Shown here piece by piece: positions 52,742 through 56,895 of a DNA stretch of 64,000 bases. The number at the start of each line of letters is the position of its first letter. Position 1 is the first letter of the stretch. The translations under genes were made by a program, and so were the position numbers. Source of the stretch: an uncultured Candidatus Binatia bacterium (GTDB lineage: Bacteria > Desulfobacterota > Binatia > UBA9968 > JAJDTQ01); the NCBI GenBank assembly GCA_965215605.1, contig OZ244070.1, positions 3,199,424 through 3,263,423 of the forward strand, written 5' to 3'. The notes beneath the pieces are model-generated. The model was given only the letters and a program-made list of their open reading frames with translations, ran no database searches and had not been told where the DNA came from.

Positions 52742-53308
52742 ATGCGCATCTACGCAAGAAACCGCGCCTGCGGATTTCGCTACAGCCGAGCCGCTTGGGG
52801 CCCGTTCAGCAACTTCTCGCCCCTGGCCGTGCCCATCGCCGCCGGCCCGTGGACGTTCGCTACGTCCGAGGCCTTGTACCAAGCCGGCAAGTTCGCCTCG
52901 CGCCCGGACATTCAGCAGCGCATCGCCGAAGCGCCGACGCCGGGGCAGGCCGCCGCCATCGGCCGCACCACGGGTCTCGGCATCGATCCCGGCTGGACGG
53001 GGCAGCGCGTCAACGTCATGCGCTGGGTGCTGCGCCTGAAGCGCGAGGCCAACACGGCCGAGGTCGACACGCTCCTCGCCGCAACCCGAGACCGCCCCAT
53101 CGTCGAGGTCTCCGTGCGCGACCCCTGGTGGGGCGCCCGTCCCGTGGCCGACCGCTACGAGGGCAGGAACGTCCTCGGACGGCTCTGGATGGAGCTTCGC
53201 AGGCAGCTCCGCGACGGCCACCCTGCGGCCCGTTCCGGCGCCTGGCTCGACCAGATCCGCGTCGGCCGGCTGGCTTGCCGCTCCGGCGCCGCCCGAGAGG
53301 CCGCCTGA
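52742..53308 (+). CDS. NADAR (YbiA/DUF1768) family protein
   Basis: FSNFSPLAVPIAAGPWTFATSEALYQAGKF...RVNVMRWVLRLK matches the NADAR signature (SNF...F.T.E..YQA.KF). GGGAGG RBS. Confidence 0.7.
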   Translation: MRIYARNRACGFRYSRAAWGPFSNFSPLAVPIAAGPWTFATSEALYQAGKFASRPDIQQRIAEAPTPGQAAAIGRTTGLGIDPGWTGQRVNVMRWVLRLKREANTAEVDTLLAATRDRPIVEVSVRDPWWGARPVADRYEGRNVLGRLWMELRRQLRDGHPAARSGAWLDQIRVGRLACRSGAAREAA

Positions 53309-53453
53309 CAGCGGCTGCGCCACCAACCCCACACCCTCACGGCAACCTGCGGCTCGGCCCATGGAGTTCGAGGCCAGCGGCCGGCGAGGGCGCGGCCGGC
53401 GGTCTTCGAGGGCGTCCGCGCCGCTCCGATTTCCCGCCACACGGAGGTTGTCC

Positions 53454-54488
53454 ATGACCGTTCCCGACAAGATTTCCGCCGACTACACGCTGCCCCCGAA
53501 CGATCTCGCCGAGACGCTCGCTCTCCTGGTCGAGGCCCGCCAACCGTCCATCGTCTGGGGACCGCCCGGGGCCGCCAAGAGCCAGATCGCCCGGCAGGTC
53601 GCCGCGGCATCCAACCGCCAATACGTCGACATCCGGGCGTTGTTGCTCGAACCCGTCGATCTTCGCGGCATCCCCTGGCGAGACAACACGGACCGCACGC
53701 GCTGGGCCACGCCCAATTTCCTGCCGCCGGCCGACGATCCCGGGCGCTGGCTCATCAACCTCGAAGAACTGCCGTCCGCGGTCCCGATGGTCCAGGCGGC
53801 GCTCTACCAGTTCGTGCTCGACCGCAAGATCGGTGACTACAAGCTGCCCGAAGGCGCCTCGCTGATCGCCTGCGGCAACCGGGAGACGGACCGCGGGGTC
53901 GTGCACCGCATGCCCACGCCCCTGGCCTCCCGCTTCATCCACCTCGACGTCCGCGTGGACGCGGCAGACTGGTGCGAATGGGGAGCGGCGAACGGCATCG
54001 CGCCCGAGGTGATGTTCTTCATCACGTACAGGCCGGACCTCCTGCACCAATTCGACCCGCAGTCCAGGGAGCGCGCCTTTCCGTGTCCGAGGTCCTGGGA
54101 GTTCGCCAGCAACATCGTCAAGCTCATCAAGAACCACAACGGCCTCCGTCCGGCGGTCGAACTTGCCCTGTTCCGGGGCACGGTCGGCGAAGCCGCGGCC
54201 GTCGAGTTCTCGGCGTTCCTGAAGGTCTGGCGCGAGTTGCCCCACCCGAGGGCGGTCCTGAACGACCCGGAGAACGCCGAGGTCCCGGACAACGCGAGCG
54301 CGTTGATGGCTCTCTGCGGCTCTCTCTACCGCCTCGCCTCCGACGTCAACATGGACGCCATCGTCACCTTCGCGCAGCGGCTTCGCCGGGAAGTCGGCGA
54401 GTCGCTGGTCGGCGCGTGCGCCCGCCGCAACCCAACGCTCCAACACTCGCCCGCCTTCATTCGCTGGGCCGCCGCCAAAACGCATTAG
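53454..54488 (+). CDS. MoxR/CbbQ-type AAA+ ATPase
   Basis: Walker A VWGPPGAAKSQIA, Walker B-like WLINLEELPSA, and sensor/arginine region ACGNRETDRGVVHRMPTPLASRF. GGAGG RBS. Confidence 0.8.
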   Translation: MTVPDKISADYTLPPNDLAETLALLVEARQPSIVWGPPGAAKSQIARQVAAASNRQYVDIRALLLEPVDLRGIPWRDNTDRTRWATPNFLPPADDPGRWLINLEELPSAVPMVQAALYQFVLDRKIGDYKLPEGASLIACGNRETDRGVVHRMPTPLASRFIHLDVRVDAADWCEWGAANGIAPEVMFFITYRPDLLHQFDPQSRERAFPCPRSWEFASNIVKLIKNHNGLRPAVELALFRGTVGEAAAVEFSAFLKVWRELPHPRAVLNDPENAEVPDNASALMALCGSLYRLASDVNMDAIVTFAQRLRREVGESLVGACARRNPTLQHSPAFIRWAAAKTH

Positions 54489-54649
54489 GGAAGAACGCCA
54501 TGCACTGGAGAATCACCCACTACCCCGCCGGCGACGCCCTCGGTCGACTACGTCGTGCGGGCGCGCACCCTCGAGGCCGCCAAGCGCAAGCTGGCCGCCG
54601 CCCTGAACGTCCCCGTGTGGACCCTCAGGTAACCCCGAAGGAGGAATCC

Positions 54650-55546
54650 ATGGACCTCAACCGCGACGCCATGCTGGTCGGGCTGCGCATCACCGCCTGG
54701 TCCGGCCGGCTCTACGACCGAGAAGCGAGCGACCACGTCGCCGTCCACCACGACGCCAGCGCGAGCGCCGGGCGCTACAACAAGCGCCTCTTGCCCAAGG
54801 CCGCCTTCGCCACGCTCACCGCAACCATGAGCGAGGCGCGCGCCCGGCACTACGCCAACTCCCTCCCCTGGGACGACAAGGGCTCGCGGCTTCTCACCGT
54901 CGCCAACTACGAGCGCTACACCGGGCTCATGGACGGGCTCCGCGAGCGCGTGGTGCGCCAGCGCGCCCGCTTCATCGAGGACTACGATCACTACGTCGCC
55001 CAGGCCCGGCTCGACCTGGGCAAGCTCTTCCGCATCGAGGAGTACCCCTCGAAGGAGACGCTTCAGGACAGGTTCTCCATCAGCTACCGCATCACGCCAG
55101 TCCCGGACGCCGACCACTTCATCGCCAAGCTCGCCTCCGACGATACCGAGCGGGTGAAGCGCGACATCGAGCGCCACGTCGAGGAGCAGCTCCACGACGC
55201 CGTGGGCGACCTCTACCGGCGTCTCGCGGAAGCGGTGGAGCGGGTCTCGGAGCGTCTCAATGAGGACGAGAACGGCAAGCCCCTGGTGTTCCGCGACACC
55301 ATGATCTCCAACATCCGGGACCTGGTGGACGTGGTTCCCCGGCTCAACATCTTCGGCGACCACAGGCTCGCGCGCCTCTGCGAGGACGTGAAGGAGAAGA
55401 TCGCCTGCGTCGGGCCGGATTCGCTCCGTCCCTCGAAGAGCTTCGATCCCGAGGCCCGGGCCCGGGTGAAGCGCGACGCCGACGCCTTGATGGAACAGTT
55501 CGCGGGCTACTTCTCCCCGGCCGAGCCGGTCCGGGAGGTGGCGTGA
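54650..55546 (+). CDS. Conserved hypothetical protein between the MoxR and VWA genes (possibly DUF3150-like)
   Basis: 298 aa with an AAGGAGGAA RBS. The stop overlaps the next start (ATGA). Helical, charged composition. The DUF assignment is only a recollection. Confidence 0.6.
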   Translation: MDLNRDAMLVGLRITAWSGRLYDREASDHVAVHHDASASAGRYNKRLLPKAAFATLTATMSEARARHYANSLPWDDKGSRLLTVANYERYTGLMDGLRERVVRQRARFIEDYDHYVAQARLDLGKLFRIEEYPSKETLQDRFSISYRITPVPDADHFIAKLASDDTERVKRDIERHVEEQLHDAVGDLYRRLAEAVERVSERLNEDENGKPLVFRDTMISNIRDLVDVVPRLNIFGDHRLARLCEDVKEKIACVGPDSLRPSKSFDPEARARVKRDADALMEQFAGYFSPAEPVREVA

Positions 55547-56895
55547 TGGCTCCCGGCGTACTGAGAGAGTCCGCGCTCCGCATGAGCGACTGTGTGACCG
55601 AACTTTTACGCAAGCAGCCCTTCTTCGGGAGCCTCGTGCTGAGGCTCCCGCTTCGCCCCGACCCCACGCGCAAGACGCTCGCCACCGACGGACAGGAGAT
55701 CCGCTATTCGCCAAGCTGGGTGGCGGAGACCGATGCGCACCTCATCGAGACCGCGATGGCGCGGGTGGTGATGGCGTGCGTACTCAAGCACCACACCCGC
55801 CGGGGAGAACGGGATCCGGAACGCTGGCAAACGGCCTCGCAGCTCGTCACCCACGCTTTGTTGCGCGATGCTGGCTTTACCCTCCCGCCCGACGCCGAAG
55901 CCTGGGAGGAGCTGAGCGTCGAGCAGGCATACGACCGCCTTCCGGAGCCCAGGGACGACGATCCAGGCGACGAAAGCAACCCGCCACAAGACGCCGGCGC
56001 GGGCAACCAGCAGCCTCCTGGCGGCGGCGATCCCGCCGGAGACGGCGACGATCAGGGCGAGGACGGCGGTGACGATGCGGACAGCCAGGACGAGGACAAC
56101 GGCGGCGGCCACGACGGGAATCGCCATGGTGAGGACGGCGCATCCGACGCGCCGCCGAGCCACGATCCTTCCGGCACCGGCGAGGTCATGGACGCCGCCG
56201 CAGGCGCGGACGACGGCTCCTATCCCGGCGAGGCGCCCGTGGACGCCGTCGCCGAGGAGCAGGCGTGGGACGAGGCCATGCACCAGGCGCTCAACATCGC
56301 CAGGGCCGAGGACAAGGCGCCCGGCCTGGTCGCGGAGACGGTCCGGAGCGCCCATGCGAGCACGCTGGACTGGCGAACGCTCCTGCGCCGCTACATGACC
56401 GACGCCGCCAAGTGTGACTATAGCTGGAGCGTTCCCAACCGGCGCTTCATCGACTCAGGCCTCTACCTGCCCTCGATCCGCTCCGAAGGCATCGACACGA
56501 TCGTCGTCATCATCGACACCTCGGGCTCTGTCCCGGCCCAGACCCTCGCCGGGTTCTGGACGGAACTGCGCGAGGTCGCGGCCGAGATCCGCCCCGGGAG
56601 GGTCATTGTTCTCCAGGTCGACACCGCATTGCAGGACGCGGCCGAGTACTCGCCCGATGAACTCCCGGACGAGATCGCCATCAAGGGCCGGGGCGGCACC
56701 GACTTCCGCCCGGGCTTCGAGTGGCTCGACGAGCAAGGGATACAGCCGGGCGTGTGCCTCTACTTCACGGACATGGACTGCTCGACCTACCCGGAGGCAG
56801 ACCCTGGGTTCCCCGTCGCCTGGATCAATTGGGGCCCGGTCCCGTCAGAGTGGAACCGCGAGCCTTGGGGCGAGCGCATCGACATCGCCCCCTGA
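55543..56895 (+). CDS. VWA-like domain protein with an N-terminal putative metallopeptidase-like domain (DUF2201-type) and an acidic linker
   Basis: N-terminus LLRKQPFFGSLVLRL...ATDGQEIRYSP. D/G-rich linker. C-terminal VWA/MIDAS-like IVVIIDTSGSV...KGRGGTDFRPGFEW...CLYFTDMDC. Confidence 0.7.
   Translation: MMAPGVLRESALRMSDCVTELLRKQPFFGSLVLRLPLRPDPTRKTLATDGQEIRYSPSWVAETDAHLIETAMARVVMACVLKHHTRRGERDPERWQTASQLVTHALLRDAGFTLPPDAEAWEELSVEQAYDRLPEPRDDDPGDESNPPQDAGAGNQQPPGGGDPAGDGDDQGEDGGDDADSQDEDNGGGHDGNRHGEDGASDAPPSHDPSGTGEVMDAAAGADDGSYPGEAPVDAVAEEQAWDEAMHQALNIARAEDKAPGLVAETVRSAHASTLDWRTLLRRYMTDAAKCDYSWSVPNRRFIDSGLYLPSIRSEGIDTIVVIIDTSGSVPAQTLAGFWTELREVAAEIRPGRVIVLQVDTALQDAAEYSPDELPDEIAIKGRGGTDFRPGFEWLDEQGIQPGVCLYFTDMDCSTYPEADPGFPVAWINWGPVPSEWNREPWGERIDIAP

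Follow-up and report, generated by a model that had tools for sequence, protein, structure and literature searches.

A conserved mobile-element module of ATPase, DUF3150 and zincin-like/VWA genes with a facultative NADAR gene on a decayed integrative and conjugative element of a Candidatus Binatia bacterium

The 64,000 nt stretch of DNA analyzed here (the window) comes from an uncultured Candidatus Binatia bacterium (assembly GCA_965215605.1, contig OZ244070.1, positions 3,199,424 to 3,263,423), and four of its genes, lying on the plus strand between positions 52,742 and 56,895, encode a NADAR protein, a MoxR-like AAA+ ATPase, a 298 amino acid (aa) protein and a protein with a von Willebrand factor type A (VWA) domain. 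An initial annotation of the stretch had treated the four as a single cassette. We find that the conserved unit is a triad of the ATPase, the 298 aa protein, which is a relative of the DUF3150 family, and the VWA protein, since these three are syntenic in near and far relatives and NADAR is not. The triad was seen only on invading elements, namely integrative and conjugative elements (ICEs), plasmids and phages, across many phyla. It is quite likely that these genes specify a MoxR/VWA-type remodelling complex that serves the element carrying them. That its role lies specifically in establishment or counter-defence is a suggestion in which our confidence falls somewhat short of even. The whole reading, a conserved mobile-element module comprising a MoxR/VWA remodelling machine for establishment or counter-defence and a facultative NADAR de-ADP-ribosylase, is put forward as the best explanation and comes close to an even call.

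A scan of the window for open reading frames (ORFs) and domains confirmed the four plus-strand ORFs where the initial annotation had placed them, with the predicted domains present. The module consists of the following features.

52742..53308, plus strand: NADAR protein of the YbiA subfamily, 188 aa, a facultative accessory (PF08719, 1.7e-21)
53309..53453, plus strand: spacer between the NADAR and ATPase genes, an insertion hot spot in relatives (inserts in the related loci L005 and L025)
53454..54488, plus strand: AAA+ ATPase of the AAA_5/Midasin/CbbQ/NorQ type, N4 gp24 family, 344 aa (phrog_1297, 2.5e-92)
54501..54632, plus strand: remnant of a conserved 44 aa ORF, frameshifted by a 2-nt deletion near 54540-54545
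54650..55546, plus strand: DUF3150-family protein, 298 aa, with a small beta-sheet and long helical hairpins (homologues, tblastn, AlphaFold2 model)
55543 or 55546 to 56895, plus strand: DUF2201_N (dead zincin-like) domain, acidic D/G-rich linker and DUF2201 VWA domain, N4 gp25 family, 450 or 449 aa (Pfam, phrog_1314)

A Shine-Dalgarno/GGAGG-type ribosome-binding site (RBS) lies 6-9 nt 5' of each of the four ORFs. All four carry a high-GC coding signature, with a GC content at third codon positions (GC3) of 0.85-0.89, and GC is distributed over their codon positions as expected for real genes of this high-GC genome. The ratio of nonsynonymous to synonymous substitution rates (dN/dS), computed against 8-81 related loci depending on the gene, was 0.31 for NADAR, 0.21 for the ATPase and 0.24 for DUF3150; for the last protein it was 0.09 in the N-domain and 0.23 in the C-domain. 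All four ORFs are under purifying selection (dN/dS 0.09-0.31), and the coordinates, strong RBSs and domain calls of the initial annotation hold on the evidence of ORFs, GC3, dN/dS and Pfam. Its description of the last two genes as coupled by an ATGA overlap needs correction in one respect: the overlap is present, but the junction reads GTGATG, so that a GTG start at 55543 gives a 4-nt overlap (GTGA) and an ATG start at 55546 gives a 1-nt overlap. A 1-nt overlap of these two genes also occurs in locus L001. The start-stop overlap points to translational coupling.

The conservation of the triad was assessed in 80 loci whose DUF3150 protein is 74-92% identical to that of the window (one genome per species), together with L001-L004, for a total of 84. 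The ATPase gene was present in 79 of these and the DUF2201 gene, which encodes the VWA protein, in 77. Much more distant triads, 28-36% identical and in the same order, were found on two plasmids, one from Rhodovastum and the other a conjugative plasmid from Cupriavidus where a PRTRC cluster lies nearby, as well as in cyanophage MinM2. Among 23 IMG/VR contigs containing a DUF3150 relative, an ATPase homologue lay within 6 kb in all 23 and a DUF2201 homologue in 22, the sole exception being a contig whose end cuts the locus. Phage records contained 849 homologues of the ATPase, including some named 'N4 gp24-like', and 649 of the VWA protein, and a homologue search with a mixed alignment recovered the same clade again. 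The plasmid triads (Burkholderiales and Rhodovastum) and those of MinM2 and the IMG/VR contigs are thus like that of the window in their three families and gene order, and those of conjugative plasmids lie near PRTRC, ParB and Toprim genes. They differ from it in their low identity, in an intact HExxH motif, and in having neither the long acidic D/G-rich insert nor NADAR; the 44 aa ORF is not evident in them, and MinM2 has a different 90 aa ORF. NCBI annotates the triad as 'ATP-binding protein / DUF3150 / VWA-like domain-containing protein'.

The ATPase falls below the Pfam cut-offs for both AAA_5 (18.4 bits, cut-off 22) and bpMoxR (18.6 bits, cut-off 27), the latter match being at the P-loop only. 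A five-sequence profile of the ATPase family matched the AAA domains of Midasin in the PDB at 2e-19, followed by NorQ (3e-5) and CbbQ (6e-5). A VWA neighbor bearing a metal-ion-dependent adhesion site (MIDAS), as tested for in a MoxR-like ATPase, is present in the DUF2201 domain of the fourth gene. In the window the Walker A motif is GPPGAAKS and the Walker B motif NLEEL. Across the clade Walker A takes the form GPPG[AST]AKS, in which Ala replaces the Gly before the Lys while the Lys and Ser are retained, and nearly all members have the NLEEL form of Walker B, with Glu-Glu replacing Asp-Glu. The window and most clade members therefore fail a test for canonical Walker A (GxxxxGK[ST]) and Walker B (hhhhDE) motifs, whereas all 23 viral ATPase relatives have the canonical GxxGxGK[ST] P-loop.

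The spacer between the ATPase and DUF3150 genes is 160-190 nt long in 54 of 77 loci, and in 49 of these 54 it contains an intact 44 aa ORF, which is broken in the window and in four other loci. This ORF has its own RBS, shows synonymous Arg CGC/AGG exchanges and has a ratio of nonsynonymous to synonymous polymorphism (pN/pS) of 0.45; MVWRITHYPAGDAPSRDYAVRAPSLEAAKRKLAAVINVPVWTLR is an example. In the window remnant, the frame that opens at ATG 54501 continues straight into DUF3150. Thirteen loci are entirely without the 44 aa ORF and still keep the triad. A 43 aa ORF of roseophage DSS3phi2 (orf21, L085 5215-5346), situated between genes resembling N4 gp24 and gp25, is similar to the 44 aa ORF in size and position.

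The 298 aa protein had no match of its own in the Pfam scan. PF11348 is, however, present in homologues that are 83-87% identical to it, and tblastn led from it to annotated DUF3150 genes on plasmids and phages with E values of 1e-20 to 1e-38. An AlphaFold2 (AF2) model built from a deeper alignment, with a mean predicted local distance difference test (pLDDT) score of 83 and a predicted template modelling (pTM) score of 0.70, matched phage DUF3150 proteins of BFVD with TM scores of 0.73-0.84 (E 1e-17 at TM 0.78). An earlier model from a shallow alignment of sequences 74-98% identical reached a pLDDT of 66 and was set aside with its Foldseek result. The protein is a DUF3150 relative despite its own Pfam blank, and belongs to a family of 6422 clusters at 50% identity. 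A Foldseek search with the AF2 model found no counterpart among solved PDB structures (best E value 0.15), and PDB sequence and profile searches with the DUF3150 and DUF2201 proteins gave no significant match. The neighborhood and profile searches that the initial annotation had proposed have in this way placed its helical protein of no named family within DUF3150 and within a syntenic triad, while leaving the ATPase below the bpMoxR and AAA_5 cut-offs.

The fourth protein matches DUF2201_N at 1e-38 (134 bits against a cut-off of 23.2), DUF2201 at 9e-23 and phrog_1314 at 1e-72. When it is aligned with plasmid and phage homologues, RVVMA takes the columns of the zincin HExxH motif, as does its more general form [A]R[VIT]V[ML] in 79 of the 81 clade members. 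In contrast, HExxH is kept in all 22 viral relatives examined, and its variants include AHEVLH and AHECLH in plasmid and phage homologues, IAHEIWH in an N4-like gp25 homologue and SHEVGH in phage Bas54. The D...N stretch downstream shows the same division, the Asp and Asn being conserved in plasmids and phages and replaced by Gln and His in the window and L001. At the same time the zincin-like N-domain, with its dN/dS of 0.09, is the most constrained part of the cassette. The peptidase site of the ICE clade is thus, judged from its residues, catalytically dead yet under strong purifying selection. The MIDAS of the VWA domain is made up in the window of DTSGS, Thr385 and Asp409, which are invariant in a five-sequence alignment, and DxSGS is found in 62 of the 81 clade members as well as in the window. 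The acidic D/G-rich linker between the two domains is far longer than in plasmid and phage homologues; in Midasin, too, an acidic linker precedes the MIDAS domain. Of the architecture described in the initial annotation, a metallopeptidase-like N-terminus, a D/G-rich linker and a MIDAS-like VWA domain, the DUF2201_N fold, the linker and the MIDAS are all present, but HExxH is lost and an active peptidase is unsupported.

The NADAR protein matches PF08719 with 77.6 bits (cut-off 35.1) over profile positions 8-163 of 163, and matches the structure of E. coli YbiA (2b3w) at 7e-15. The FSNF, TSE..Q..KF, IVE and GRN.LG..MELR stretches align between the two proteins. The Glu of the IVE stretch is that of the last strand, where the window sequence IVEVSVRDPWWG aligns with LVEHTENDAYWG of YbiA, its structural position being inferred from the alignment; this residue is an Asp in the DarT1-linked BC4488 type and a His in the phage gp30.3 type (PMC11125620). 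Pfam scans of the neighboring genes showed no DarT/ART domain beside NADAR, the rest of the window not having been searched for DarT, and no adjoining DarT, YarT or phosphoribosyltransferase partner.

The initial annotation had raised the question of whether NADAR always accompanies the other three genes. It does not: NADAR was found in 8 of 79 close relatives (L005, L008, L016, L025, L055, L056, L058 and L062), no partial remnants of it were seen in other related loci, and it was absent wherever the triad was found in more distant relatives, in the three plasmid and phage loci as in all 23 viral contigs. Where present, it is upstream of the ATPase gene on the same strand, and directly so (approximately 145 nt) in the window and six loci. 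This position is the same whether the preceding gene is NikA-like (window, L008 and L016) or PAPS-reductase-like (the gammaproteobacterial loci), and the NADAR-bearing copies fall into three separate subclades of the DUF3150 tree. The notion that NADAR is only fortuitously adjacent is therefore half right, in that the gene is facultative, yet three subclades have it at the same junction. The spacer between NADAR and the ATPase gene has received inserts of about 8.3 kb in L005 (540-8817) and 1.1 kb in L025 (7783-8892). Since these separate the two genes, co-transcription of NADAR with the ATPase cannot be obligatory, and the four-gene cassette does not stand as a unit.

Upstream of NADAR is a conserved non-coding leader, which is a possible promoter region travelling with the gene. 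Its homology to other NADAR-bearing loci begins at 52573-52578 in comparison with L008, L016 and L025 and at 52650 in comparison with L056 and L058 (blastn). A scan with the sigma-70 consensus, which is uninformative for this taxon, found no promoters, and a terminator scan was likewise uninformative, since the terminator-like sites were no more frequent than expected by chance and lay on the wrong strand. The leader and the features that lie on the 3' side of the module are as follows.

52573..52741, plus strand: conserved non-coding leader, possible promoter region travelling with NADAR (blastn homology to NADAR-bearing loci)
56988..57146, no strand assigned: conserved segment 3' of the module (79-81% identical to the DNA immediately 3' of the DUF2201 gene in L005 and L008)
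57234..59310, minus strand: AbiEii/AbiEi pair, inserted and outside the module (Pfam AbiEii 4e-40, AbiEi_3 8e-37)
59231..59356, minus strand: last 42 codons of a TrwC-type relaxase (tblastn with residues 987-1028 of the L008 relaxase, 71% identity)

The module is carried by an ICE of the MOBF/MPF_F type found in sponge-type symbionts, of which the window copy is decayed. The mobile-element setting proposed in the initial annotation is borne out by integrases and a relaxase remnant, and the two flanks that it named are a C-terminal integrase fragment (52046-52381, minus strand) and the AbiE toxin-antitoxin pair. The island begins after urease genes with two tandem tyrosine integrases (19275-21692). 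Low-GC cargo (52-57%) follows at 23280-25867, with an Eco57I/TaqI-type methylase and an XhoI-family restriction endonuclease, and then a nucleotidyltransferase on the opposite strand. The plus-strand ICE genes are, in order, a PAPS-reductase-like gene, a large ParB_N gene, a gene for a 584 aa protein, RadC and a 1492 aa Sno-type helicase, followed by GmrSD_C/Excalibur, a single-stranded DNA-binding protein, a DUF7146-Toprim primase-like gene, DUF4326 (46950-47252), a YAcAr gene of the SLOG family (47678-48700) and a NikA-like gene. Diverged, non-coding direct repeats occupy 48750-49930, between the YAcAr/SLOG and NikA-like genes; the units are 70-90% alike and spaced approximately 290-440 bp apart, with more copies in L008 (3654-5686) and also in L016 and L025. 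This block could be an origin of transfer (oriT) or an iteron-like region. In the window the interval between NikA and NADAR holds the integrase fragment and an ankyrin-repeat gene (50686-51864) with five 99-bp tandem units (51223-51743); L008 has other sequence in this interval.

L008, which has 85-92% DNA identity to the window, illustrates a less decayed arrangement. There, and likewise in L005 and L009, the triad is followed by two 99 aa ORFs and then by convergent genes for a TrwC relaxase, a TrwB-type coupling protein and TraG_N. Positions 57147-59189 of the window have no counterpart in L008 or L016, where the two overlapping 99 aa ORFs stand in the place that the AbiE pair takes in the window, and an IS3 element (59383-60623) truncates the window relaxase gene. 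In most other copies the triad sits between the integrases and the PAPS-reductase-like/ParB block. Since its position differs between copies, the triad is a self-contained block that changes its place within the element. Metagenome-assembled genomes labelled as belonging to at least seven lineages (phyla or classes) contain the element, namely Binatia, Thermodesulfobacteriota, Alpha- and Gammaproteobacteria, Dehalococcoidia, Acidobacteria and Gemmatimonadota; a single genome holds ten copies or more, and the copies of different phyla are intermingled in the DUF3150 tree. A megablast search found no near-identical DNA in plasmids. Sequencing runs that hold the cassette include several labelled as sponge metagenomes. 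All four genes are covered by metatranscriptome contigs of at least 85% similarity, which suggests that the family is expressed, although the depth of contigs measures expression poorly and some DNA may have been carried over.

The phage relatives offer the closest view of what such genes may do. N4 gp24 and gp25 are homologous to the window ATPase (identified by tblastn as 'N4 gp24-like') and to its DUF2201_N plus DUF2201 protein, and they are core genes of all N4-like phages with middle-gene transcripts (PMC4193335). In the N4-like roseophage DSS3phi2 one strand encodes both homologues, separated by a small ORF, and the genes around them are for RNAP2 and nucleotide metabolism and not structural. 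The phage proteins differ from the window in keeping HExxH and the canonical GxxGxGK[ST], and N4-like and V5-like phages lack a DUF3150 gene at the locus, unlike the ICE module. In phage Bas54 (MaxBurger) the ATPase gene bas54_0063, whose product is 33% identical to the window ATPase over 242 aa (E 2e-34), and the DUF2201_N/DUF2201 gene bas54_0055 are eight genes apart and on opposite strands, again unlike the module. According to a HIDEN-SEQ preprint, which gives the only functional result that we found, bas54_0063 (described as a 'MoxR ATPase') is dispensable on K-12 and needed against the predicted defence system DS-28. We considered bas54_0140 as an equivalent of DUF3150 and ruled it out, as it is a 99 aa ORF. 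A paper on leading-region anti-defence genes and its supplements do not mention these families. The counter-defence role raised in the initial annotation is plausible in the light of the Bas54 ATPase homologue and of orphan phage NADARs that act against DarTG1 (PMC11825919).

Several described systems resemble the module in part. CbbQ/CbbO, NorQ/NorD, RavA/ViaA and Midasin/Rea1 each place an AAA_5-class ATPase beside a MIDAS-bearing VWA protein. The window module is set apart from these machines by a zincin-like N-domain on the VWA protein, an obligate DUF3150 component, the lack of a nearby metabolic client and a distribution confined to mobile elements. The ternary systems of Kaur, Burroughs, Iyer and Aravind (2020) also have three components, including a MoxR-like ATPase and a vWA protein, with a conflict role proposed from genomics only. 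Here the third component is DUF3150 and not VMAP, a beta-propeller or FtsH, there are no arrays of effector domains, and the module is carried by invading elements, while the Kaur-type systems are carried by multicellular hosts. Pfam found no VMAP, propeller or effector domain in the four window proteins. With bpMoxR below cut-off, DUF3150 as the third gene and no PADLOC match, the membership in these published conflict systems that the initial annotation had considered is rejected. The initial annotation had also named a cobaltochelatase-like CobS/CobT pair as a possible outcome. That pair likewise joins an AAA_5-type ATPase to a VWA partner, and plasmid relatives are sometimes annotated as such, but the partner architecture here is DUF2201_N/DUF2201, no NCBIfam CobS/CobT model matched, the island contains no CobN-like gene, and a match to phrog_249 covers 37 residues at the P-loop. 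Both identities were rejected because these membership tests failed. The NADAR protein shares its fold, the YbiA-type Glu and the conserved stretches with YbiA, DarT1-NADAR, gp30.3/AdfN and DS-32B, and it stands alone on an invading element, as NADARs do in T4-like phages (PMC11825919). It differs from DarT1-NADAR and DS-32 in having no adjacent toxin or phosphoribosyltransferase partner. DS-32 is an anti-phage system of NADAR and a phosphoribosyltransferase (preprint); membership was rejected, since the window protein scored 130 bits (4e-38) against the NCBIfam DS32_2 model, whose cut-off is 240, and has no such neighbor. In PADLOC-DB 2.0, the search of which had been suggested earlier, the ATPase, DUF3150 and DUF2201 proteins had no match, and NADAR had only a weak one to the candidate PDC-M42C (E 1.8e-4). 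What is already known is thus the uncharacterized N4 gp24/gp25 family and DUF3150, and the absence of an experimentally established function for the cassette, as first annotated, still stands. New are the clade with a pseudo-protease and altered P-loop, the conserved 44 aa gene, the recurrent optional NADAR, and the multi-copy ICE that crosses phyla.

In MoxR-VWA pairs such as Midasin, CbbQ/O, NorQ/D and RavA/ViaA, an ATPase ring remodels a client held by the MIDAS site of the VWA protein (PMC7159879). By analogy, the core of the module, consisting of the AAA_5/MoxR-like ATPase, usually the 44 aa protein, DUF3150 and the zincin-like/MIDAS-VWA protein, may form a complex in which the ATPase ring uses ATP to remodel a client held by the VWA/MIDAS protein, with DUF3150 as an obligate third subunit that could be a client-binding scaffold or the client itself. 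Because phage and plasmid adaptors keep HExxH, the ancestral machine was probably an ATP-driven, adaptor-targeted protease; the site in the ICE clade being dead but strongly constrained, the machine there would not cut its client but bind, remodel or sequester it. The beneficiary is probably the element itself, since the triad is part of the core and not cargo, lytic phages carry it and PADLOC has no match for it, and since the N4-like homologues have a middle-gene setting and Bas54 its anti-DS-28 report. Its likeliest task would be to help the element establish itself, or counter defences, once inside a new cell.

NADAR would be a separate, optional acquisition with its catalytic residues in place. 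All NADARs tested hydrolysed guanine-ADP-ribose, and DarT1 modifies guanine in single-stranded DNA (ssDNA) (PMC11125620); an orphan NADAR of T4-like phages neutralises DarTG1 (PMC11825919). The window protein most likely strips ADP-ribose from guanine in the DNA of the element, and so may counter DarT1-like toxins that act on ssDNA. Because an ICE enters its recipient as ssDNA, an orphan NADAR is a plausible optional counter-defence. A bolder proposal, which we regard as rather doubtful, is that the triad with its small ORF is a general 'entry' machine common to N4-like, V5-like and jumbo phages, conjugative plasmids and ICEs. This would be a split AAA+ protease removing or disabling a conserved host or immune factor, which in the sponge-symbiont ICE clade would have become a pseudo-protease that neutralises its target by capturing it with the use of ATP and not by cleavage, with NADAR as a second, DNA-repairing counter-defence in the same early operon.

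Several observations weigh against a role in establishment or counter-defence. In L008 the module adjoins the 3' end of the relaxase gene. We had considered a placement in the leading region of the element and dropped it, the oriT not having been located, and early expression was dropped likewise. A basic function in the phage life cycle would explain why the genes are core to all N4-like phages no less well than one specific to defence. In the Bas54 screen the genes singled out were that of the ATPase and an unrelated one of 99 aa, the zincin-VWA partner bas54_0055 not being among them, and the composition of DS-28 was not found in either version of the DefensePredictor paper. Because Walker A, Walker B and HExxH are all non-canonical, activity in the clade may differ from that of the phage homologues, or there may be no ATP hydrolysis. 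NADAR also passes TIGR02464, the generic model for riboflavin-intermediate N-glycosidases (75.8 bits against 73.7). We found no family member with demonstrated biochemical activity or a known client. Finally, the window copy itself lies in a decayed ICE and has lost the 44 aa ORF.

The last of these points might mean that the window copy is inert, a leftover of a dead ICE whatever the family does elsewhere. Its relaxase has been reduced to 42 codons by IS3, the integrase fragment, ankyrin gene and AbiE pair have been inserted, the 44 aa ORF is frameshifted, and type IV secretion system (T4SS) genes are absent from the window. This is nevertheless quite unlikely, since the four large ORFs are intact with RBSs, their key motifs agree with the consensus of the clade, metatranscriptomes contain related copies, and the 13 loci without the 44 aa ORF retain the triad. 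An assembly chaperone would account for the relaxase, coupling protein and TraG_N genes adjoining the module in L005, L008 and L009, and for a structural or assembly need behind the core status in N4-like phages. In this form MoxR-VWA and DUF3150 would fold or assemble a T4SS or relaxase substrate in ICEs and plasmids and a virion or tail in phages, and the peptidase, where active, would act on the substrate as well; the same was proposed by Iyer et al. (2021) for jumbo-phage MoxR-vWA proteins (with or without a metallopeptidase), citing tail assembly in Acidianus two-tailed virus (PMC7824862). We judge it unlikely. The DSS3phi2 pair keeps company with RNAP2 and nucleotide-metabolism genes, N4 gp24 and gp25 are middle and not late genes, and most ICE copies have the module beside the integrase, PAPS-reductase-like and ParB genes and not beside transfer genes. 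Moreover, Bas54 can do without its ATPase on K-12 and requires it only when facing a defence system, and ICEs, plasmids and phages have no common structure to assemble.

The initial annotation had allowed for either side of the conflict, and the module could be host-protective defence cargo of the ICE, with MoxR/VWA as a sensor-activator and NADAR as its immunity or effector partner. The island does carry AbiE and an XhoI-type restriction-modification system, NADAR resembles that of the validated anti-phage system DS-32 (preprint) and weakly PDC-M42C, and a part in biological conflict has been put forward for MoxR-vWA ternary systems (PMC7159879). Such a role is very unlikely given that PADLOC is blank for the core genes, that bpMoxR is below cut-off and matched at the P-loop only, that no effector or VMAP-like component was found in the four proteins, that NADAR falls well below the DS32_2 cut-off with no adjacent phosphoribosyltransferase, and that the triad belongs to the fixed core set of the element and to lytic phages and not to variable cargo. 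Extremely improbable is a housekeeping or auxiliary metabolic enzyme for cofactor or metal insertion, of the CobS/CobT, NorQ/NorD or CbbQ/CbbO type, with NADAR as a riboflavin-intermediate N-glycosidase. NorQ and CbbQ are of the AAA_5 fold class, as is the ATPase, some plasmid relatives are annotated CobS/CobT, and NADAR passes TIGR02464; but the phrog_249 'porphyrin biosynthesis' match is weak (E 7e-4) and limited to the residues around the P-loop, no NCBIfam model for CobS, CobT, NorQ or NorD matched, the partner is DUF2201_N/DUF2201 and not CobT, no CobN-, NOR- or Rubisco-type client gene is nearby, and the triad is confined to mobile elements and phages of many phyla.

The ATPase and zincin-VWA pair is among the few genes common to all N4-like phages. 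The window represents a separation-of-function variant of this pair, in which the protease site is lost and the ATPase motifs are altered under strong purifying selection, and the loss of the protease under such selection implies that non-catalytic adaptor functions matter. The occasional coupling to NADAR suggests that conjugative ssDNA is a target of guanine ADP-ribosylation. Most records of the element come from sponge and other marine host-associated samples, and a multi-copy ICE family that extends across at least seven lineages with DUF3150 proteins 74-92% identical is relevant to gene flow in symbiont communities.

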